DNA of 64,000 nucleotides, taken from a virus. Where the stretch lies: the IMG/VR virus record IMGVR_UViG_3300008110_000034, positions 1-64,000 of that record; one strand, given 5' to 3'. Within the stretch, counting starts at the first letter, position 1. The number at the start of each line of letters is the position of its first letter. Of the stretch, positions 15,476-28,528 are shown piece after piece. The notes beneath the pieces were generated by a model. It made no database searches. It saw only the letters and a program-made list of their open reading frames with translations, and was not told the DNA's origin. A program made the translations under genes and the position numbers.

Positions 15476-15534
15476 TCAAAACTTGATTAGTTCCAAAATT
15501 GGATAAATATTAGCATATTAAGGAAGGAGCGATT

Positions 15535-17132: not shown

Positions 17133-17616
17133 TTTTTTAAAAGAAGTCTTACCAGACTTTGACTTTGATAATCCCGTTATTAATCCTCTAACACTAGAAG
17201 AGGAAATGGTCAAGTTAATGGCAGAAGAAAACGGTATTGGTCTTGCTGCAAGTCAAGTAGGAGTCAATGCCAGGGTATTCGTTATGCATCTTAAAAATAT
17301 GCCTGAAGTGTATACACCATTTGCTCTATTCAATCCTGTAATAATCAGTGCAAGTTCAGAACAAGTTGAAGATGAAGAAGGATGTTTAAGCTTTCCAGGA
17401 TTATTTTTTAAAGTTAAAAGACCTAAAACTATAGTAGTCGAGTTTCTTGACAGAAATAAAAAATCTTATATACTAACACTAGAAGGAATCGATGCTAGAT
17501 GTTTTTTACACGAGTTGGATCATTTAAATGGTGTCTGTTTTACAGACCGAATAAGTAAATTAAAACTAGATTTAGCAATTAAAAAACAAAGGAAAAGATA
17601 TGGTAGAACCAAGTGA
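17104..17616 (+). CDS. def: Peptide deformylase
   Basis: GIGLAASQVG, EGCLS, HELDHLNG motifs. Confidence 0.93.
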   Translation: MLKLLKSTDNFLKEVLPDFDFDNPVINPLTLEEEMVKLMAEENGIGLAASQVGVNARVFVMHLKNMPEVYTPFALFNPVIISASSEQVEDEEGCLSFPGLFFKVKRPKTIVVEFLDRNKKSYILTLEGIDARCFLHELDHLNGVCFTDRISKLKLDLAIKKQRKRYGRTK

Positions 17617-19846
17617 CAATTTGCAGTTGGTATTTGAAGCAGCAATCGATGTAGCTAAAAAACTCAATCATGAATATCTTACAATCGAACATTTGCTGTA
17701 TGCTATGTTATGCGATGAAAGTTTTACTAATTGCATTAGCGGATATGGTTCAGATCCAGAAAGCTTAAAAAAGGATGTCGAACTCTATATCAAAAATAAA
17801 TTAAATGATATAGTAATCAGCGATAATACTAAGCCAAAAAAAACTCAAGCAGTTGAGCGAGTGTTAAACAGAGCATTTACTCAAGTGCTGTTTCATGGAA
17901 GACAAAAAATTGAGTCTACAGATGTTTTTGTCTCGATTATGAGCGAAAAAAAATCTTGGGCACATTTTTATATTCAACAAGCAGACATTGATAAAGATAA
18001 ATTCCTCGATTATATTAATAATGCAGCAGAAGAGGAAGAGATTGAATCACATGACACACAGAGCGATCGTGCTCTAAAAGCTTTTACTACAAATCTAAAT
18101 GAAGCTGTTAAGAAGAATAAAGTTGATCCTGTTATTGGACGCATTGACGAGTTAGAAAATATCTCTCTAGCACTTGGACGTAGATCAAAGAGTAATGTAA
18201 TTCTTGTAGGCGATCCAGGTGTAGGTAAAACTGCAATAGCTGAAGGACTTGCATATAATATTGTTAAAGGTGCAGTTCCAGATTTCCTTAAAGAATATAC
18301 AGTTTATAATTTAGATATTAGTGCTATGTTAGCAGGTAGCAAGTATCGTGGAGACTTTGAAGAACGCTTTAAAGCAGTATTAAAAGGCCTAAGCAAAAAA
18401 GGAAAAACTGTCCTGTTCATCGATGAAGCACATATGATCAGCGGAGCAGGAAGTGCAAATAATAGTGCAAATGATCTCAGTAATATGATGAAACCTGCAC
18501 TGAGCAAAGGTAATATTAAAGTTGTTGCTAGTACTACTTGGGAAGAATATCGTAAGTACTTTGAAAAGGATCGCGCACTAATGCGTCGATTCCAACGAAT
18601 TACAGTAGAAGAACCTACTGCAGAAATGACTATACAAATCCTTAAAGGAATTAAAAAATACTACGAAACTTTTCATAAAGTTAAAATTAAAGATGATGCA
18701 ATTCATTCTGCCGTAAAACTTAGCATTAAGTATCAAGCAGATAAGAAATTACCAGATAAGGCAATTGATTTAATTGACTGTGCTGCAAGTAGATTTAATC
18801 TTAAATTAGCTGATGAAAGAATAATCACTACTAATGAAATTGAATACGAAATTAGTAAAATGGTTAATATTCCTGCAGAGACAATTGCAGAACAAGAATC
18901 TTCAAATCTAGCTAATTTAGAATCTCAAATTAAAGAAGACGTCTATGGACAAGATTTTGCAATTACCGAAGTTGTAGATAAGATTCTTGTAAGCAGAGCA
19001 GGGTTAAAATCTGAAAATAAACCAGTTGGTAGTTTTGTGTTCATGGGACCAACGGGTTGCGGTAAAACTGAGACTGCTAAAGCACTGTCCAAGCACCTCG
19101 GAGTCAAGCTAATTAGATTTGATATGAGTGAATATCAAGAAAAACATTCAGTATCTAAACTAATTGGCAGTCCGCCTGGGTATGTAGGTTTCGAAGAAAA
19201 TGCCGGATTATTAATTACACAGATCCAAGAATCCCCGAACTGTATACTACTGCTAGACGAGATTGAAAAAGCTCATCCGGATGTGGCAACTATTTTGTTG
19301 CAAATTATGGACAACGGATTTGTTACAGGCAGTAATGGTAAAAAGGCAGATTGTAGAAATATTATTCTAATCTTAACTACTAATGCAGGTGCAGCAGAGT
19401 CTGAAAAGAATGTTATTGGGTTTGGTGATCAAGAAAAAGTCTACGAAGATAAAGAACTTAAGAAATTCTTTGCTCCAGAATTTAGAAATCGTCTTGATGG
19501 CATTGTTACATTCAACAAGCTTGGAAAAGAAACAATGATCAAGATTGTTGGAAAATTCATGTCAGAAGTGCGTGATCAAATTAGAGAAAAAGGCGTTAAA
19601 CTAAAAATCAATAACGACGCAATTGACTGGTTAGTAGAAAAAGGGTTTGATAAGAAAATGGGTGCTCGTCCTTTACAGCGTGTAATTGATAAAGAAATTA
19701 AACGTCCGTTAGCTAAGATGATACTATTTGGTGATCTTAAGAAGGGCGGAATATTGAATATTTCTATAGAAGATGATAAAATAGCACTACGACCAAAAGT
19801 TAGTAAGTCTAAAATTGTAACAAATGAAATTCCTGAAATCTCATAA
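17600..19846 (+). CDS. clpA: ClpA-type AAA+ unfoldase
   Basis: Clp N-domain, two Walker A motifs (GDPGVGKT, GPTGCGKT), IGF ClpP-docking loop, no ClpB middle domain. Confidence 0.92.
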   Translation: MVEPSDNLQLVFEAAIDVAKKLNHEYLTIEHLLYAMLCDESFTNCISGYGSDPESLKKDVELYIKNKLNDIVISDNTKPKKTQAVERVLNRAFTQVLFHGRQKIESTDVFVSIMSEKKSWAHFYIQQADIDKDKFLDYINNAAEEEEIESHDTQSDRALKAFTTNLNEAVKKNKVDPVIGRIDELENISLALGRRSKSNVILVGDPGVGKTAIAEGLAYNIVKGAVPDFLKEYTVYNLDISAMLAGSKYRGDFEERFKAVLKGLSKKGKTVLFIDEAHMISGAGSANNSANDLSNMMKPALSKGNIKVVASTTWEEYRKYFEKDRALMRRFQRITVEEPTAEMTIQILKGIKKYYETFHKVKIKDDAIHSAVKLSIKYQADKKLPDKAIDLIDCAASRFNLKLADERIITTNEIEYEISKMVNIPAETIAEQESSNLANLESQIKEDVYGQDFAITEVVDKILVSRAGLKSENKPVGSFVFMGPTGCGKTETAKALSKHLGVKLIRFDMSEYQEKHSVSKLIGSPPGYVGFEENAGLLITQIQESPNCILLLDEIEKAHPDVATILLQIMDNGFVTGSNGKKADCRNIILILTTNAGAAESEKNVIGFGDQEKVYEDKELKKFFAPEFRNRLDGIVTFNKLGKETMIKIVGKFMSEVRDQIREKGVKLKINNDAIDWLVEKGFDKKMGARPLQRVIDKEIKRPLAKMILFGDLKKGGILNISIEDDKIALRPKVSKSKIVTNEIPEIS

Positions 19847-20468: not shown

Positions 20469-20506
20469 AAGAGTCTCGATACGATAAATATCGTAAAGGG
20501 GCTTTT
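20469..20506 (+). terminator. Long hairpin (terminator-like) with a late promoter TAAATA at its apex
   Basis: AAGAGTCTC/GGGGCTTTT outer stem, TACGAT/ATCGTA inner stem; TAAATA at 20486-20491. Confidence 0.6.
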
Positions 20507-20508
20507 TT

Positions 20509-22185
20509 ATGACTACATCATTACTAAGAAATTATATAGATATTTTAAACGAACAACAATCTAATCAAGTCAAAGTACCTCCAATTCCTGCTCTTCCTCC
20601 AACTGATGGGGAACTTAATGGAGGCGAAAAAGTCTATTCTAATCCCGATGGCACAAGATCATATGCTGGAGCATTTGGCAAATTTACATATGATAAATCC
20701 GGCAAGGCAATAAAATATGCCACTCCTAATCTAGGCGGATTTGGAAAAGAGATTGATTTGCAAACCGGCCTTGTTAATACAGATGCGCAGGTAGGCGACA
20801 TTAAAATGTCTACTAAACAGCGTCCAGATCAGAGCACAGTCACTAGTGCTAGTACTTCTGTTGGTGCTAATACTGTTTCTATGGATCAAGGTATAGGATT
20901 TGGTGGTGCAGGCAAGGATGTTGAACAAGGTGGGAATAAAATTTATAGCGTAACTGGTCCTGATCCAGAAGATAAAAGACAAGAACCAGATAAACAAAGT
21001 TTCGTTGGTAGAAAACCATCGCAACAAGAGCTAGGTGTGTTAATGAAGGAATCTAATAAAATGTCATTAAGAAAATATTTAGATATACTAAATGAAGGTC
21101 CTCCTCCGGGAGTAGGGCCCAATGCTGCTCCTAAAAAACAAGCAGCACCAACTATGCAACAAAGAGCAGATCAATTAGCCGCAGCAGATTCTCAAACAGG
21201 ACAAGGCATGAGAGATATTGAAAAAGGTAATTATGCTGGCGGAGCAGTAGGAGTAGCTAAAGGTGTAAACCAAATGGCCAATGCTGCTGGTTTGTCGTTT
21301 TTAGATAAACTAAAAATGGGCTGGATGTTTGCCAAGGCTGGAGTAAGAGGACTAATCACTGGATTAAAAGCAGGAGATGCCGGTGCAGGAGCAAATGCGG
21401 CTGCTGCTAGTCTGATAGGCGAAGTTATTCCAGAAGTACACAAGTATGTAAATAGTCCTAATTTTGCAAAAGAATTCGAAGCTGGCGTAATGAAGATGAA
21501 GGATAGTCCTGATCCTAAAAATAAAGAAATGTATCAAAAATATATGTCAGGAGAGCTAACTGCTAATAGTTTCAAAGCCTATGTAAATCGTCAATATGAT
21601 GATTATTTAAAGATGCAAAAAGGTCAGAATGCATCAGGAGATGTAGATGATAATATGTATACAACACCTTCTGCTCCTATGAATACTAGTAATTACTCGG
21701 CACAAACTCCGACTCCAGCAGAAGGAATACAATATAAAAATAAAAGTCTTCTAGAGCATATCGAAGAAATAGAAAATGAAGGGTCGTTAAGTTCTGGAGA
21801 TTATTTCCATATAGAACTAGCAGAAGATGAAGGCATTGAAACTTGGGTCATTGCTGAGTGGAGTGAATCTGTATTGATCGAAGCAGACTCTGCTACTCTT
21901 AAATTATTAGAAGAACACGGCTGTACCTTCCATGATGAATTAACAGAAGCAGAATACCAAGGACGCAGCGTGTCATTAGGCAAACCCATGGCTGGCGATG
22001 TTAAAAAATCTAAAGTTTATGTTAAGAAGCCAAATGGCAAAGTAGTTAAAGTAAATTTCGGCGACAAAAAGTTAAGTATTAAAAAACATATTCCTGGTCG
22101 CAGAAAATCTTTTAGAGCAAGACACAATTGTGCTAATCCAGGACCACGTTGGAAGGCACGTTACTGGTCATGCAGAGCATGGTAA
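20509..22185 (+). CDS. Multi-module probable internal head protein
   Basis: Leader LRNYIDILNE recurs internally as LRKYLDILNE; basic C-terminal KVNFG...RRKSFRARHNC...ARYWSC module. Confidence 0.55.
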   Translation: MTTSLLRNYIDILNEQQSNQVKVPPIPALPPTDGELNGGEKVYSNPDGTRSYAGAFGKFTYDKSGKAIKYATPNLGGFGKEIDLQTGLVNTDAQVGDIKMSTKQRPDQSTVTSASTSVGANTVSMDQGIGFGGAGKDVEQGGNKIYSVTGPDPEDKRQEPDKQSFVGRKPSQQELGVLMKESNKMSLRKYLDILNEGPPPGVGPNAAPKKQAAPTMQQRADQLAAADSQTGQGMRDIEKGNYAGGAVGVAKGVNQMANAAGLSFLDKLKMGWMFAKAGVRGLITGLKAGDAGAGANAAAASLIGEVIPEVHKYVNSPNFAKEFEAGVMKMKDSPDPKNKEMYQKYMSGELTANSFKAYVNRQYDDYLKMQKGQNASGDVDDNMYTTPSAPMNTSNYSAQTPTPAEGIQYKNKSLLEHIEEIENEGSLSSGDYFHIELAEDEGIETWVIAEWSESVLIEADSATLKLLEEHGCTFHDELTEAEYQGRSVSLGKPMAGDVKKSKVYVKKPNGKVVKVNFGDKKLSIKKHIPGRRKSFRARHNCANPGPRWKARYWSCRAW

Positions 22186-22190
22186 AAGAG

Positions 22191-22532
22191 ATGGATAAAA
22201 TGAACCCTTTAGATATTACAAGAAAAAAAGATAAAGATACATTAGATTTTGATCTAATTGAAGATGTTATCTATTTTATGAACAATGATCCAGAATTTTA
22301 TAGGAAAACCTATTTTCCATTTATTCATAAATTTAAAAGTTATATAGATGCAGGTCGCAGATTAAAACCTGTAGTGTTTGCACCTATGTGTAAAAAGGCT
22401 TTTGATTTATATCAAAATAAATTTCCTCAAGAAAGTATGCATTTAGAATTATCTAAATCAGATTATAAAGACATGTGCGGTAAATTACACGAAAAAGAAA
22501 TGACCAATATTAAAGAGGGTCATTATGATTAA
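22191..22532 (+). CDS. Hypothetical protein
   Basis: ATG just after the previous stop; start uncertain (22191 or 22200). Confidence 0.55.
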   Translation: MDKMNPLDITRKKDKDTLDFDLIEDVIYFMNNDPEFYRKTYFPFIHKFKSYIDAGRRLKPVVFAPMCKKAFDLYQNKFPQESMHLELSKSDYKDMCGKLHEKEMTNIKEGHYD

Positions 22533-23268
22533 TGTAAATGAAGGTGGAAACGTAATTCCAGGTGCTAAAGAAATTAATAAGAGAAATTTCCAAAGTGCAA
22601 TGCAAAATCTTCAACAGGTATTACCAGATGGCATCAATGTCTATCCTATTGGCAGTGCAGGTAAGAAAGAAATCAGTAGTGATATTGATGCACTGATTGA
22701 CGCAAAAGAATTAATGTCAGTTTTTCCTGCAAAAGAATTAAAATTAAGTCGTAAGGCTCTAGAGGACTATTTTAAAGAAAACGGATACTTTGCCGCAAGA
22801 ACAGGTGTTAGTATTCACGTAGGCATTCCTACTGGCGAAGGCGAGGAAATTGTACAAGTTGATCTTATGGCTGTAGAAAATGCTGCTGAAGTCCAACCTT
22901 TACACACTCATGACTACGACGAACCTACAATGAAGGGCGGAACCTTACACGCTATATGGGCAGATTTAGCTAATATGAGTCAACTTCCTGGTCATGAAAG
23001 TCTAATGATGAGTCCTTATAAAGGATTGGTTGATAGAAATACTAAAGAATTAATAACCAGCGATAAAGACAAAATCGCAAAAGTAATTATTGGATCAACG
23101 GCAAGTGCAGATGACATGGGATCACCTAAAAAAATGCTAAAGGCTCTAGAACCATATACTGAAAAGTATCAAGCAATTAAAACAAAATATTTTCCACAAA
23201 CAGAAAGTTATGTTCCTGGAACAACTACTTGGTTTAGGCAAATGATTAATATAGCGAGTGTCCGATGA
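22525..23268 (+). CDS. Pol-beta superfamily nucleotidyltransferase
   Basis: IGSAGKKEISSDIDALID (GS...DxD) plus a downstream VQVDLM third Asp. Confidence 0.7.
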   Translation: MINVNEGGNVIPGAKEINKRNFQSAMQNLQQVLPDGINVYPIGSAGKKEISSDIDALIDAKELMSVFPAKELKLSRKALEDYFKENGYFAARTGVSIHVGIPTGEGEEIVQVDLMAVENAAEVQPLHTHDYDEPTMKGGTLHAIWADLANMSQLPGHESLMMSPYKGLVDRNTKELITSDKDKIAKVIIGSTASADDMGSPKKMLKALEPYTEKYQAIKTKYFPQTESYVPGTTTWFRQMINIASVR

Positions 23269-24419
23269 AATTAAGAGAATTGTTTGAAGCTGCTGCTCCT
23301 AAAGTTGGTAGAAAATATCAACACGTAGAAGACCTTGTAATTACTAATGGAGTACAGGGCGGGCTTCACGCAGTCGAAAGACTTAGAGATATGGTAGATG
23401 ATCCTAAGACTATTGAATTAAAGTGGGACGGAAATCCAGTAGTCTATTGGGGCAGAGATGCTGAAGGACGGTTTAGTCTTATACCTAAAAATGCTTGGGA
23501 ATACTTAAAAAGAGGCAAGCAGGAATTAGAAAACGGTATTAAAACTGTGATGTACGATCCCGAAGATATAAAAGATTTTATATTAGGCACAGGAAAACTA
23601 GATCCAGCAAAACAAAAAGAAAGAGAAAAGTTTGCTCAAGAAATTTCTGGATTATGGAATTATTTTGAAAAAGCCAGTCCACAAAAGGGATATGTTGAAG
23701 GCGGAATACTTTTTAGACCTGGACAGCCTGGCTGGTCCGGAGATCCTAATCCTTCAACGGGTGAATTTGATTTTACTCCAAATATAACTTCGTTTCATAT
23801 AGGACCAGAATCACAACTATATGAAAAAATTAAAAGAGCTAAAATAATGGTAGCAGTGACCGGCTATTACGAAGAACTTGGTAGCAGTGACGAGTTAAGA
23901 TATCCAGATGCAGAAGCACTCAGCACAGAAGATGTTATAGTTCAAGGTACTACTTACATTGAAAAACTAGAAGGATTAGAAGTTCCAGAATTAGATCAAA
24001 TAGAAGAATACTTAAATAATCCAAAAGTTTCTAGTGCTATTTCAAGGTACTTGTCTCCAAAGCCTGGACTGAGTAATCCGGGAAGTGTTTTATATACGTT
24101 TTTAAATGCTAATCTTAGAAAAAATAATCTTACTCAAGCATTTCAAAGTTGGTCGCCAACAAAATTAAGTGCTGGACAAAATCAAAAAATGTTGTCAGAC
24201 ATGGAAGGATTAGATTCTACTCTAAAAGCTGTAGAGATGCTTACAAATGCTAAAATGAAAGTGATTGCTGCTGCTAGTTTAGGAACACACGGCGGTATAA
24301 GACAAACTAAACCAGAAGGATATGCACAAGCACATCCAGGTAAAAAATTTAAATATGACATTCCTGGTCAATTTATAAAAGCGATTGATCAAGATACTTG
24401 GTCTCCAAAAAAGGATTGA
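23265..24419 (+). CDS. Ligase-like covalent nucleotidyltransferase
   Basis: ELKWDG (KxDG motif I); late KPEGY; leader MKLRELFE. Confidence 0.55.
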   Translation: MKLRELFEAAAPKVGRKYQHVEDLVITNGVQGGLHAVERLRDMVDDPKTIELKWDGNPVVYWGRDAEGRFSLIPKNAWEYLKRGKQELENGIKTVMYDPEDIKDFILGTGKLDPAKQKEREKFAQEISGLWNYFEKASPQKGYVEGGILFRPGQPGWSGDPNPSTGEFDFTPNITSFHIGPESQLYEKIKRAKIMVAVTGYYEELGSSDELRYPDAEALSTEDVIVQGTTYIEKLEGLEVPELDQIEEYLNNPKVSSAISRYLSPKPGLSNPGSVLYTFLNANLRKNNLTQAFQSWSPTKLSAGQNQKMLSDMEGLDSTLKAVEMLTNAKMKVIAAASLGTHGGIRQTKPEGYAQAHPGKKFKYDIPGQFIKAIDQDTWSPKKD

Positions 24420-24420
24420 A

Positions 24421-26094
24421 ATGAAAATTAATAATTTATTTGAAGATTTAACAAGAACAGGCGAGAGTAAAAGTGCAGTAGTAGGCTGGGGACGTGGTAT
24501 GGGACATAAAGGCCACATGTTCTTAGCCAGTAGCGTAGTAACTCATGCAGATGAACTTTCAGCAGATCCGTATTTTGTAGTTAGCAAAACAGTGGGCAAG
24601 GATGATCCAATAACCCCAGAAGAAAAATTAGAAATTTATAAAAAAGTTTTCCCAGAAAAAGGACATATTTTTCAAACTGCTAGCGACGAGATGCCAGACC
24701 TTACGAGAGTGTTATCAAAATTAAATAGTTTAGGCTATGATAATGTTACTGTAGTTGTAGGCGCAGATCAAAAAAAAGCACTGAGCTATGTTCAAAATTA
24801 TAATGGAACTCCTGATAAAAAAGGAAATATTCCATATAGTTTTAAAGAATTGAATGTAATTAGTAGACAAGAAACTAATGATCCTAATGCAGGAGAGGAA
24901 GGACCAAGGGCCACACCAATGAGAGATATATTAAAAAATCCAAATGCAAGCGAAGAAGAAAAATTTAAATTATGGCGATCATCAATGAGCCCCGAATTAA
25001 GCGACCAAGAAGTAAAAGACTTAATGAGTAAGGCTTCGGATCGCATGGGGGAATTCACTGGGAAAAAAGATAAGGTTGCAGAATCAGTAACTCCTGATCA
25101 ATTTAAAAAAACTATGCTTTCTGAAGTAAAAAGACTTGTAGAAGAAATAAAGAAAGACCCTTATATCTCTAAAATGTTAAAAGAAGATAATCAGGATGAA
25201 GACTACTATTATGTAGTTCGTCGTCAGACTGAACAAGACATTGAATTAGAAATGCCTTCAAAGATGTGGACCGGTCTTAAACCTAAACATGCCACATACG
25301 AAGAAGCCAAAGCAGCATACGAAGAACTAAAGAACAAGCATCCTAGAGAAAAGTTCACAGTTACAAGACATCCTAGGACATCTCACATAGGTGGCAAACC
25401 TAATCGAGAGTTTCCAGAAGGTGTGGCGGAAGGCTCTGACAATATTGAACAAATCAAAGCCAAAATTCGAGAGTTAGAAGCAGAACAGGAAGAAAACAAA
25501 TATGGTTCTTTTGCCTATGACAGTGTAGACGCTGAACTGCAATTTTTATACGGAAAGTTAGATAAAATTAAAAAGCAAGGTGTGGCGGAAGGCTCAGATG
25601 ATATTGAGGATACACGACAATGGAGAGATGCTATTGCTTTAGCCAAATCACAAAAGGCGATCCGTCAGGCTCGATATGGCAAAGACCAAAAGTTTTATGC
25701 CGACGGCACACCAGTAACTCCTGAGGAAGTTGCTCGCAGAGCCGCAGAAAGAAAAGCCAAAAAGAAAGGTGTGGCGGAAGGCTCTGGCGGTGCCAGATAT
25801 AAAATAAAAAGCATTGGTAAAGACAAGAACGGTGATTATTACATCAGCCCTAACACAGGCAAAAAAGTTTACAAGAATGCTAAAGTGGGTGATCACGAAA
25901 CTCCACGCGGGGAAGTAAAACCTAATGTGGCGGAAGGTAAAATTAAAATAAAAATTAAACATCCGCCAGAAACTGCTCAAGAAAAGTTATATAAGAAGCA
26001 TCAAGAATTAAGAAAGAAAAGTGGCTTACCTGATCCAGAAGAATATAAAAAGAAAGCAGCCGAGCTGAGCCACCTAAACCAAGAAACTTTGTAG
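24421..26094 (+). CDS. HxGH nucleotidyltransferase fused to a GVAEG-delimited module array
   Basis: Leader MKINNLFE; GRGMGHKGH, VVVGADQ, RATPMR; C-terminal modules separated by GVAEG. Confidence 0.7.
   Translation: MKINNLFEDLTRTGESKSAVVGWGRGMGHKGHMFLASSVVTHADELSADPYFVVSKTVGKDDPITPEEKLEIYKKVFPEKGHIFQTASDEMPDLTRVLSKLNSLGYDNVTVVVGADQKKALSYVQNYNGTPDKKGNIPYSFKELNVISRQETNDPNAGEEGPRATPMRDILKNPNASEEEKFKLWRSSMSPELSDQEVKDLMSKASDRMGEFTGKKDKVAESVTPDQFKKTMLSEVKRLVEEIKKDPYISKMLKEDNQDEDYYYVVRRQTEQDIELEMPSKMWTGLKPKHATYEEAKAAYEELKNKHPREKFTVTRHPRTSHIGGKPNREFPEGVAEGSDNIEQIKAKIRELEAEQEENKYGSFAYDSVDAELQFLYGKLDKIKKQGVAEGSDDIEDTRQWRDAIALAKSQKAIRQARYGKDQKFYADGTPVTPEEVARRAAERKAKKKGVAEGSGGARYKIKSIGKDKNGDYYISPNTGKKVYKNAKVGDHETPRGEVKPNVAEGKIKIKIKHPPETAQEKLYKKHQELRKKSGLPDPEEYKKKAAELSHLNQETL
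25418..25937 (+). repeat. In-frame dispersed direct-repeat array (AAGGTGTGGCGGAAGGCTC)
   Basis: Identical 19-mers at 25418-25436, 25577-25595 and 25766-25784; 12-nt core TGTGGCGGAAGG at 25926-25937. Periods 159, 189 and 156 nt. Confidence 0.95.
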
Positions 26095-26770: not shown

Positions 26771-26985
26771 CCCTAGAAGAATTAAAAAAATTATCCGGTA
26801 TAAGTTCACATAAAGGATACCAAGTGTGGGAAGGTAGTAATATTAGTCTCACAGGGAATGAAAAAGGCGAACTTATGAAAAAACATAAGATTAAACCAGG
26901 AACTCCAGAATGGTTCCAACTATGGTTTAGCCTTCCTTATTTAACCGGTGAAAACCCTATAGGTCATTCCAATGAAAGTTTATGA
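26767..26985 (+). CDS. Small hypothetical protein
   Basis: Coupled ORF; LEELKKLSGI motif. Confidence 0.55.
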   Translation: MTLEELKKLSGISSHKGYQVWEGSNISLTGNEKGELMKKHKIKPGTPEWFQLWFSLPYLTGENPIGHSNESL

Positions 26986-27574
26986 AATCGTCTCCGAAGC
27001 TGCTGTTCTGCAACGTGTACCTAAACTAGGTGCAGATGCTATCATAAATGTTGTCAAACAACGATTATCAGGAAAAATTGCCAGTGTTGTAGCTAAAAGT
27101 ATTCCTGTTGTAGGAACTGTAATTGCACTTAAAGGTGCGTATGATAAACTAAAGAGTGTTTGGCAAAGTGGACAAAGTATCAGTCAGGGGGATATAATTG
27201 GCGCAGGACTTGATGTAGCAAGTACCTTTGGGTCATTCGTAACTACTATTCCCGCTACTGCCTACAGCATGGCTAGAGAATTATATGCAGAAGCCTATGC
27301 TGGCATCAAAGGGGAAGCAGTTACTCTTGAACAAGACCTAGCATCGGACCCGCAAGGAACTAAACAACGACTTAACACATTAGTGGCTAGTATTGCAGAT
27401 ACAATTAAAAAAGAAGTAGATTTAGCCATGGCTAAAGTTAGAGGAACACCTCAAACACCCCCTACTGCTGTAGCACAAGCACCTGCTGCTAGACCTGCTG
27501 CTGCACCTGCTGCTGCACCTGCTGCTGCGCCTGTAGCACAAGCACCTGCCCCTAAACCCGTAGCTCGGGTTTAA
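26972..27574 (+). CDS. Probable internal head protein with Ala/Pro tail
   Basis: Leader MKVYEIVSE; GCACCTGCTGCT tandem repeats near the 3' end. Confidence 0.5.
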   Translation: MKVYEIVSEAAVLQRVPKLGADAIINVVKQRLSGKIASVVAKSIPVVGTVIALKGAYDKLKSVWQSGQSISQGDIIGAGLDVASTFGSFVTTIPATAYSMARELYAEAYAGIKGEAVTLEQDLASDPQGTKQRLNTLVASIADTIKKEVDLAMAKVRGTPQTPPTAVAQAPAARPAAAPAAAPAAAPVAQAPAPKPVARV

Positions 27575-28270: not shown

Positions 28271-28528
28271 ATGAGGTTAAGGGAGCTTCTTGGCGAAACT
28301 GCAACTGCTGGAGCCACTACCGCTGCTAATGTAGGCACGGTAGTTAGTCCTCATATTGCCATAGGTAAAGATCGAGGAAAGAAAAGTTATACAGGTAGTC
28401 CAGGCAAATCAGGTACAAAAGCACCAAGTGTACCAAAAGCAGTTCAAGCTAAAAACTCTGACGGCACTGCTAAAAATGCTCTTGATATGAAGGGCAACAT
28501 TTTTGGCGGCGGCGCTGTCAAACGATAA
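28271..28528 (+). CDS. Small probable internal head protein
   Basis: Leader MRLRELLGE. Confidence 0.5.
   Translation: MRLRELLGETATAGATTAANVGTVVSPHIAIGKDRGKKSYTGSPGKSGTKAPSVPKAVQAKNSDGTAKNALDMKGNIFGGGAVKR

Follow-up and report, generated by a model that had tools for sequence, protein, structure and literature searches.

Gap filling and sealing are joined in one polypeptide or complex in LigD, the polymerase–ligase fusion of bacterial non-homologous end joining (NHEJ), and in eukaryotic Pol beta and Lig3. In African swine fever virus (ASFV), Pol X and the ASFV DNA ligase act in viral base excision repair (PMC9353306). In bacteriophage T4, cargo proteins that carry a capsid-targeting sequence (CTS) are processed by gp21 and injected with the DNA, and this cargo includes the enzyme Alt (PMC9026906, PMC3012670, PMC8442874). 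The T4 CTS, MKTYQEFIAE, is cut once by gp21 (PMC8442874), with targeting affected by residues 4 and 7 and processing by residues 8 and 10 (PMC9026906). In cyanomyoviruses, a homologue of the g30 ligase is lacking or is too distant to be recognized (PMC2984593; PMC1079782). Here we describe three adjacent genes, which we call P1, P2, and P3, on the plus strand of a 64,000-nucleotide stretch of viral DNA (the window), which is the initial 64 kb of IMG/VR record IMGVR_UViG_3300008110_000034. The record has a length of 180,861 bp, an estimated completeness of ~51%, and as its source an uncultured giant T4-related water phage. The data support the idea that P1, P2, and P3 belong to three nucleotidyl-transfer superfamilies and form one co-inherited unit. 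We tentatively read this unit as one that fills and seals breaks in nucleic acids.

P1 appears from its predicted structure to be a minimal family-X-like DNA polymerase. The AlphaFold (AF2) model, which has a predicted local distance difference test (pLDDT) score of 92.7, consists of a palm, a thumb, and a short helical tail, and it lacks the 8-kDa lyase domain and the fingers (HhH) domain that cellular Pol X enzymes have. In a Foldseek search against the PDB, the best 50 matches were all Pol lambda, mu, or beta with E values of about 3e-6. Residues 12–201 align to residues 142–335 of Pol beta, the palm and thumb, with a VIA-align Z of 10.8 and a root-mean-square deviation of 3.2–3.7 over 165–171 aligned residues. 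Alignment with ASFV Pol X gave a Z of 10.4, with 159 residues aligned of the 178-residue chain, and TdT was also among the VIA structural matches. An exhaustive profile-free search yielded 163 representative clusters of P1 relatives. In an alignment of 41 of these, G43, D53, D55, Q111, and D113 show no variation and S44 almost none, which is the pattern of the Pol beta superfamily. Templated nucleotide addition is predicted for such an enzyme. By sequence, P1 had no match in Pfam, PHROGs, or the PDB. It likewise had no match at the DNA or protein level in a cultured-phage collection, nor did a distant P1 relative, which indicates that there is no P1 in that collection. The fold-level identity given here is for a large unannotated family of phage proteins that has no Pfam or PHROG model. 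Two other assignments were considered. A CCA-adding or tailing enzyme was rejected since none is within the best 50 structural matches, all of which are Pol X. No CD-NTase was seen among the best 50 Foldseek or VIA rows, an absence from the list that does not itself exclude the family.

P2 belongs to the Pfam family DUF6267, with a score of 48.9 bits against a curated cut-off of 27 (E 8.3e-13), and PF19782 was found in 120 of 120 P2 homologues among the matches listed. A scan of viral contigs with P2 alone gave nothing, and a query with an alignment recovered the relatives. The AF2 model has a pLDDT of 90.7, with residues 2–15 below 50. When this model was used in a VIA search of the PDB, the best 50 rows were all ligase-type (ligases and capping enzymes); all Z values were below 8, the highest being that of NgrRnl at 6.5. 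A wider exhaustive VIA search gave ligases or capping enzymes in about half of the best 50. Naegleria RNA ligase, REL1, and Trl1 came first in this list, with Chlorella virus ligase, T4 Rnl2, T4 DNA ligase, and vaccinia capping enzyme, among others, following later (Z 5.9–4.4 for the ranking). Against the viral structure library BFVD, the family of P2 itself came first, followed by phage RNA ligases including the Atu_ph07 RNA ligase. The Z values for RNA ligases differ from those for DNA ligases by no more than about 1.5.

Across 33 P2 relatives, which include distant fusions down to 19–29% identity, K53, D55, G56, E351, G352, and K372 are invariant and W54 is nearly so. We infer that the strands bearing the conserved residues are ligase motifs I, III, IV, and V in that order, an assignment made on the model without residue-level structural alignment. 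Between motifs IIIa and IV there is a helical insert of ~100 residues. Motif V lies 12 residues from the C-terminus, and P2 has neither a C-terminal OB domain nor a DNA-binding domain. All DNA ligases have an OB domain; RNA ligases are typically without it. From its model, P2 thus seems to be a divergent member of the ligase superfamily with a fold that is weakly but consistently ligase-like and nearest to RNA ligases. As to the substrate, P1 points to DNA and P2 points to RNA or hybrid nicks. A literature search by name for DUF6267 and 'cytitidyltransferase' returned no papers.

P3 can be placed, through its cyanophage homologues, in the HxGH cytidylyltransferase-like superfamily (PF01467: NMNAT, PPAT, GCT, and others). 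Its first ~220 residues match phrog_395, annotated as 'cytidyltransferase', with an E value of 4e-11. A tblastn search with the N-terminal domain found 187 phage records, almost all of them from cyanomyoviruses, with a best E of 5e-9. In 20 P3 relatives, G31 and H32 do not vary, and H29 and K30 hardly do. The segments GWGRGMGHKGH and GPRATPMR are conserved in these relatives, where they align with FGRxNPPTxGH and SGMSASKxR of two cyanophage proteins. The second of these segments, with its cyanophage counterpart, is presumably the ISxTxxR-type motif of the superfamily. PF01467 was matched by three of the 20 relatives (best E 2e-6), and the clusters nearest to P3 in the ESM Atlas are viral PF01467 families. 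Two of the 20, both from cyanophages, also gave weak sub-threshold matches of NMNAT/NadR type (TIGR01526 and TIGR00482; E 1.5e-3 to 2.8e-3). Searches of the PDB with the P3 sequence and profile gave chance-level matches only. Enzymes of the PF01467 type usually activate small molecules. In the tail of P3, which lies outside the enzyme, the V-A-E-G of the linkers fits an [LIV]-x-E site.

The three genes travel together. Of 80 viral contigs that have a P2 relative, nearly all show the order upstream gene(s), P1, P2, and P3, and fusions of the types P1-P2, P2-P1, P2-P3, and P1-P2-P3 occur. In many related contigs P1-P2 is a single open reading frame (ORF) of 617–636 aa, and in two (L056 and L081) P1-P2-P3 is a single ORF of 984 aa. 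From the side of P1, DUF6267 is present on 24 of 68 long representatives of the family in both domain orders, with one representative (P0263) bearing all three domains. P2-P3 fusions include that of Synechococcus phage S-PM2. In the RefSeq record of this phage (NC_006820, 103025-104804), a frame change splits DUF6267 so that the first 157 model positions are in p141 and the remainder, in the other frame, runs into the 'cytidyltransferase' p142; the UniProt entry is one 591-aa protein. Either an error in sequencing or a genuine frameshift accounts for the split. Distant phage contigs without the leader described below still have P1 paired with DUF6267, with a small KTSC-like gene between them. 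This gene encodes 77–78 aa with a weak match to the KTSC domain and always lies between the P1-like and DUF6267 genes (L094:1031-1264, L096:2639-2875). P2 is the hub of these arrangements and is partnered with P1, P3, or both.

An earlier note on this DNA had placed three consecutive nucleotidyl-transfer enzymes of different folds at 22525–25080, each with a cargo-like leader. The three plus-strand ORFs are where the note had put them (Table 1), and 25080 proves to be where the enzyme domain of P3 ends. The motifs GS...DxD, KWDG, and HKGH are all present and are near-invariant in 41, 33, and 20 relatives, respectively, so they are not due to chance. Three different folds were supported by structure prediction and fold search for P1 and, more weakly, for P2, and through homologues only for P3. 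The gene order and fusions above answer the question of synteny, the genes being co-conserved. The claim about leaders held for P2 (MKLRELFE) and P3 (MKINNLFE) and failed for unfused P1.

Because a Pol X-type polymerase that is recurrently fused to a ligase-type enzyme is a gap-fill-and-seal architecture, our favored reading, held tentatively, is that the trio is a coupled unit for nucleic-acid end-processing and break repair by filling and sealing, and that it is probably packaged. The operon would be read from a late-type ATAAATAT promoter. P1 would extend a 3'-OH, either within a gap or at an end, by adding nucleotides. The nick left behind would be sealed by P2, which would become nucleotidylated on its own Lys53. 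P3 would make or regenerate the nucleotide cofactor of P2, for example NAD+ from NMN and ATP, and this is the least certain step. P2 and P3, or in fused relatives the whole polyprotein, would be loaded onto the prohead core, trimmed by a gp21-type protease, and delivered with the DNA. We infer these steps because P2, P3, and the fused polyproteins start with a T4-like leader ending in [LIV]-x-E. Unfused P1, which has no full leader, would have to travel with P2 or else remain cytoplasmic.

The leader has the pattern M-[KRLF]-[LI]-[RN]-[EQN]-[LIF]-[FLI]. In related loci it is present on 46 of 46 unfused P2 proteins, 73 of 74 P3 proteins, and all 21 P1-P2 fusions, and an alignment of P2 relatives gives the consensus M[KR][LI]RE[LF][LIF]..E-AA.P. 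Within this genome the leader is on 7 of 190 crude genes compared with 0.1 expected from composition, which is an enrichment of ~65-fold, and it occurs at 1 of 996 internal methionines. This genome-wide enrichment argues against chance similarity of N-termini. The leader is not hydrophobic, and a secretion signal was discarded on this ground. Two local leaders, MKVYEIVSE-A and MKIYEIITE-A, are strikingly similar to the T4 CTS. In the triple fusion the leader is on the first domain only and both junctions keep an aliphatic-x-Glu (PINE-AAAP and NLQE-NINRTGEG), which, judged from the residues, would meet the needs of a polyprotein cleaved by the head protease.

A T4-type head module lies elsewhere in the record. 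It includes a portal, a prohead protease of the Peptidase_S77 (gp21) family (genome 114410-115045, 92.7 bits), a gene in the scaffold position, and the major head protein, of which the portal, the scaffold-position gene, and the head protein lie next to one another. The late promoter of T4 is TATAAATA. This canonical form was considered as the promoter here and rejected, as it occurs once in the window compared with 10 occurrences expected; the variant ATAAATAT is used instead. There are 15 copies of this octamer in the 181-kb genome, and 14 of the 15 are within 60 nt upstream of a start on the same strand. The copies in the window are at 15503, 20484, 26322, 28525, 49149, and 57024. The octamer also precedes the dps gene and a leader-bearing gene of 79 aa between the portal and the protease. 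From its sequence and placement, ATAAATAT looks like a variant of the T4 late promoter that serves as the late promoter of this lineage. The copy at 20484 probably drives the whole operon, since there is no intergenic gap from it until the end of P3. In front of dps and the 79-aa head-region gene, the octamer is just 12–14 nt from the ATG and there is no Shine-Dalgarno.

A homologue of P3 has been detected in virions. Gp154 of cyanophage S-CREM2 was found in purified virions by mass spectrometry with 3 peptides, and the authors of that study note that such enzymes recur in cyanophage virion proteomes (PMC10665884). We found that gp154 is a P3 homologue (hhalign probability 99.9%) that starts with MKNFSSFLTE-A and has the motif PPHKGH. 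Head loading of the trio is plausible because the leader resembles the T4 CTS, a gp21-type protease is encoded, ATAAATAT precedes both the operon and a head gene, and a P3 homologue is in S-CREM2 virions.

Several observations weigh against a packaged polymerase–ligase unit. The full leader was on 0 of 44 unfused P1 proteins, which begin with a 5-residue stub, MxLxE-GGN; it is on P1 solely where P1 is fused to P2. Tripeptides of the form [LIV]-x-E are common by chance. The S-CREM2 authors caution that non-structural proteins in virions could be contaminants (PMC10665884), the DUF6267 protein of S-CREM2 (gp87) is absent from the published virion table, and cyanophage P2 has no leader. The fold match of P2 is weak, with a best Z of 6.5. 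Foldseek with P2 gave no PDB match below an E of 1e-3, although the weak list was dominated by ligases, and single-sequence and profile searches of the PDB with P2 gave chance-level matches and no solved ligase. Given that P2 lacks an OB domain and that the folds closest to it are those of RNA ligases, a DNA substrate is not established for it. P3 itself had no PF01467 match at E values up to 1 and no other Pfam match.

The leader was also seen on other proteins. Three of these (window 26972-27574 and 28271-28528; genome 136845-137228), with the starts MKVYEIVSEAA, MRLRELLGETA, and MKIYEIITEAK, are small and basic (isoelectric point 9.6–10.4), match no family, and are reminiscent of T4 internal proteins. 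The one at genome 136845-137228 and the triple-fusion protein (L056:5260-8214) have a near-identical C-terminal peptide, SP[IV]AKPK[KR]N.YG[IV], and this common end suggests a shared C-terminal module or signal. The 79-aa protein noted above is acidic, starts with MILRELFYIDPD, and is encoded between the portal and the prohead protease (genome 112620-112859), a position that by analogy would be that of the T4 prohead-core genes 67 and 68. The major head protein (genome 116164-117330) begins with MSELLHGRWNETREALLE-GLSG. The LLE-G in this start is similar to LLE-GGN, the junction at which the P1 domain begins in fused relatives, and may mark the capsid maturation site.

In its boldest form, our reading would be that a giant phage loads a kit of polymerase, ligase, and cofactor enzyme into its head as CTS-tagged proteins or, in relatives, as a single polyprotein cleaved at [LIV]-x-E junctions, injects the kit with the genome to mend nicks, gaps, or ends ahead of all phage gene expression, and that DUF6267 is the missing DNA ligase of cyanophages. 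This bold form is possible and we regard it as doubtful. If packaging is confirmed, no earlier phage would have been shown to send in a repair kit of polymerase plus ligase together with its DNA. The principle of the T4 internal proteins would then reach beyond anti-restriction to nucleic-acid repair, with a polyprotein route by which a single leader loads several enzymes. Minimal polymerase–ligase fusions and a portable head-targeting leader could also serve as tools.

An alternative is that the trio has an ordinary role in cytoplasmic replication and repair. P2 would be a nick-sealing ligase for the lagging strand or for repair, P1 would fill short gaps, P3 would supply the cofactor, and the N-terminal peptide would serve in complex assembly, turnover, or translation initiation. 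The setting of the genes in cyanophages is in line with this. DUF6267 was found in 468 phage records, nearly all of them cyanomyoviruses, in which the replication module contains DUF6267 and the cytidyltransferase, with UvsX, gp41, and MazG preceding them and gp61 following. The four complete cyanomyovirus genomes that we searched have DUF6267 and no PF01068 or PF01653 ligase domain, which accords with the lacking or unrecognizable g30 homologue (PMC2984593, PMC1079782), and we found no canonical ligase in the 181 kb of the present genome, which is ~51% complete. DUF6267 is a concrete candidate for the ligase that seems to be 'missing' from cyanomyoviruses. In cyanophages, the gene just before DUF6267 on its upstream side was also considered as a P1 homologue, and this was ruled out by BLASTP and hidden Markov model searches. 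Because the cyanomyovirus P2-P3 pair is in the replication module and its P2 is leaderless, the nucleotidyl-transfer chemistry would be independent of packaging. The distant P1/P2 pairs are leaderless as well. However, the leader here is common to small basic proteins and to the gene between portal and protease, and it is closely like the T4 CTS with a protease-type site. The operon has the promoter-like motif of the head genes, a P3 homologue is in virions, and a canonical ligase may lie in the other part of the genome. On balance we consider a purely cytoplasmic role unlikely. It is not exclusive of packaging, as a late enzyme could both act in the cell and be packaged.

The earlier note had proposed a pre-packaged counter-defense kit for mending tRNA that anticodon nucleases have cleaved, for restoring NAD+ following attack by an NADase, or for making a signaling nucleotide. 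The nearest folds of P2 are RNA ligases (NgrRnl, REL1, Trl1, Rnl2, and the Atu_ph07 RNA ligase of BFVD) and P2 has no OB domain, both of which fit such a kit. It is also in keeping with the plausibility of packaging and with the weak NMNAT/NadR matches (E 1.5e-3) in two cyanophage P3 homologues, and the S-CREM2 paper refers to the cyanophage enzyme as an NMNAT homologue (PMC10665884). Yet P1 matches templated family-X polymerases over the palm and thumb, and the best 50 chains include none of the CCA-adding, poly(A), or CD-NTase kind, so the proposed CCA-adding, tailing, or signal-nucleotide function for P1 does not agree with its structural matches. For tRNA repair we found no support. A system of the T4 Pnkp plus Rnl1 type would need an end-healing 5'-kinase and 3'-phosphatase, and no kinase or phosphatase was recognized with Pfam and PHROGs in the operon ORFs, among which are small upstream ORFs without assignment in a genome of which half is missing; in addition, the Z values of P2 for RNA and DNA ligases are too close to favor RNA. 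Restoration of NAD+ was not supported either. The NMNAT label for P3 rests on the sub-threshold matches in the two cyanophage homologues, and unlike known NAD-rebuilding pathways there is no Nampt partner present. The cyanomyovirus P2-P3 genes are a near-core pair of the replication module and not part of a variable defense island. We consider a counter-defense kit quite unlikely.

Very unlikely, finally, is that P2 is not a polynucleotide ligase and instead transfers a nucleotide or a P3-activated group, as a modification, to a protein, a small molecule, or a DNA end, with P1 acting as a template-independent transferase. In favor of this are the strong divergence of P2, its lack of both OB and DNA-binding domains, the usual activation of small molecules by P3-type enzymes, and the presence of TdT in the list of P1 matches. 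Against it, P2 conserves the full set of ligase motifs (I, III, IV, and V), its fold is like ligases and capping enzymes only, and a recurring polymerase–ligase fusion is the classic architecture for break repair.

P1, P2, and P3 are translationally coupled at the end of an operon (Table 1). The start of P2 overlaps the stop of P1 (ATGA), and the ATG of P3 is two bases past the stop of P2. The two genes upstream abut the trio without gaps. The one next to P1 is syntenic in most related loci and has no match in Pfam or PHROGs. A relative of the first gene (orf20509) is upstream of the trio in few related loci only. The orf20509 protein contains the leader-like peptide LR(N/K)Y(I/L)DILNE twice, at the N-terminus and internally behind a Met, as would result from the fusion of two proteins that each bore a leader, and it ends in a basic Cys/Trp-containing domain, which is the part that matches phrog_7595. 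Just upstream of this block of leader proteins is a 748-aa protein (window 17600-19846) with two AAA+ modules that matches phrog_4871, 'ATP-dependent protease' (E 2e-253). A search of the ESM Atlas with the upstream orf19824 gave no family. The window carries T4-type replication genes that include the clamp loader and a B-family polymerase. By this polymerase, the closest cultured relatives are jumbo myoviruses with 44–50% identity, such as Sinorhizobium phage Phosso, Agrobacterium phage Atu_ph07, and Escherichia phages of 350–380 kb.

Table 1. Features of the P1-P2-P3 operon, with coordinates in the 64,000-nucleotide window.
Feature	Position	Strand	Description
Promoter-like ATAAATAT	20484..20491	+	25 nt upstream of orf20509; single promoter-like element of the operon
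First operon gene (orf20509)	20509..22185	+	558 aa; C-terminal domain matches phrog_7595
Small conserved gene	22191..22532	+	~113 aa from ATG at 22191; directly upstream of P1, overlapping it
P1	22525..23268	+	247 aa; family-X-polymerase-like nucleotidyltransferase (predicted), palm and thumb; N-terminus MINVNE-GGN
P1 active-site motif GS-x8-DxD, GSAGKKEISSDIDAL	22651..22695	+	G43, S44, D53, D55
P1 strand VQVDLM	22852..22869	+	Third carboxylate D113, beside Q111
P2	23265..24419	+	384 aa; Pfam DUF6267 (PF19782); putative divergent covalent nucleotidyltransferase, ligase-like
P2 leader MKLRELFE, then AAAPKVGRKY	23265..23288	+	Disordered in model; ends in L-x-E
P2 motif I KWDG	23421..23432	+	Candidate nucleotidylated Lys53
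P2 motif III-like VEGGILF	23694..23714	+	Strand 142-150 in model; G-[ED]-h-L-F in distant relatives
P2 motif IV-like PEGYA (E351, G352) and motif V-like FIKAID (K372)	24312..24389	+	Strands 352-355 and 370-374
P3, whole ORF	24421..26094	+	557 aa from ATG
P3 N-terminal enzyme domain	24421..25080	+	HxGH; cytidylyltransferase-like / NMNAT-like
P3 leader MKINNLFE	24421..24444	+	Start pattern of P3 in related loci M[KRLF][LI][RN][ENQ][LI][FL]
P3 HKGH motif	24505..24516	+	Aligns with PTxGH of two aligned cyanophage proteins
P3 second nucleotide-binding motif GPRATPMR	24901..24924	+	Aligns with cyanophage SGMSASKLR
P3 C-terminal tail	25081..26094	+	Small modules joined by GVAEG or NVAEG linkers; outside the enzyme

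The results also give a probable fold-level identity to DUF6267, a gene in essentially every T4-like cyanophage. Reviews since 2005–2010 have noted that there is no recognizable DNA ligase in T4-like cyanophages, and DUF6267 is a directly testable candidate.

As a comparison with known systems, ASFV Pol X (pO174L, 174 aa) is, like P1, viral and reduced to palm and thumb, without the lyase and fingers domains, and it has a ligase-type partner. The present system differs in that it is from a bacteriophage, P2 has no OB or DNA-binding domain and is nearest to RNA ligases, the domains are often fused, and there is a third, HxGH enzyme. No AP endonuclease was recognized here, and the sequence identity between P1 and ASFV Pol X is ~14%. 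LigD has the same gap-fill-and-seal logic, but its polymerase is of the primase type (AEP) and not Pol X, its ligase has an OB domain, and no counterpart of its Ku partner was seen here. The best structural matches for P2 are the RNA ligases NgrRnl/Rnl5 of Naegleria, REL1 of T. brucei, and T4 Rnl2 (Z 6.5, 5.9, and 5.0, with 170–180 residues aligned). These have the KxxG motif I lysine and, like P2, no C-terminal OB domain. However, these Z values are low, no similarity could be detected at the sequence level, and P2 has the ~100-residue helical insert.

The cyanomyovirus families T4-GC 71 (DUF6267) and T4-GC 190 ('cytidyltransferase') are true homologues of P2 and P3, and their genes are adjacent, overlapping, or, in S-PM2, fused. 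By contrast with the locus described here, no P1 is within ~5 kb in the two cyanophages checked, P2 is leaderless, the location is the replication module, and the names come without an assigned function. The closest parallel to the leader is in T4's IPI, IPII, and IPIII, which are internal proteins, and in Alt, all of which have a short N-terminal leader ending in aliphatic-x-Glu, as do MKLRELFE, MKVYEIVSE, and MKIYEIITE here. In both cases a gp21-family protease is encoded and unrelated proteins have just the leader in common. The systems differ in that the putative cargo here would consist of nucleotidyltransferases and not of an ADP-ribosyltransferase or restriction inhibitors, and in that relatives of this phage have a polyprotein in which a single leader is followed by [LIV]-x-E junctions inside the chain.

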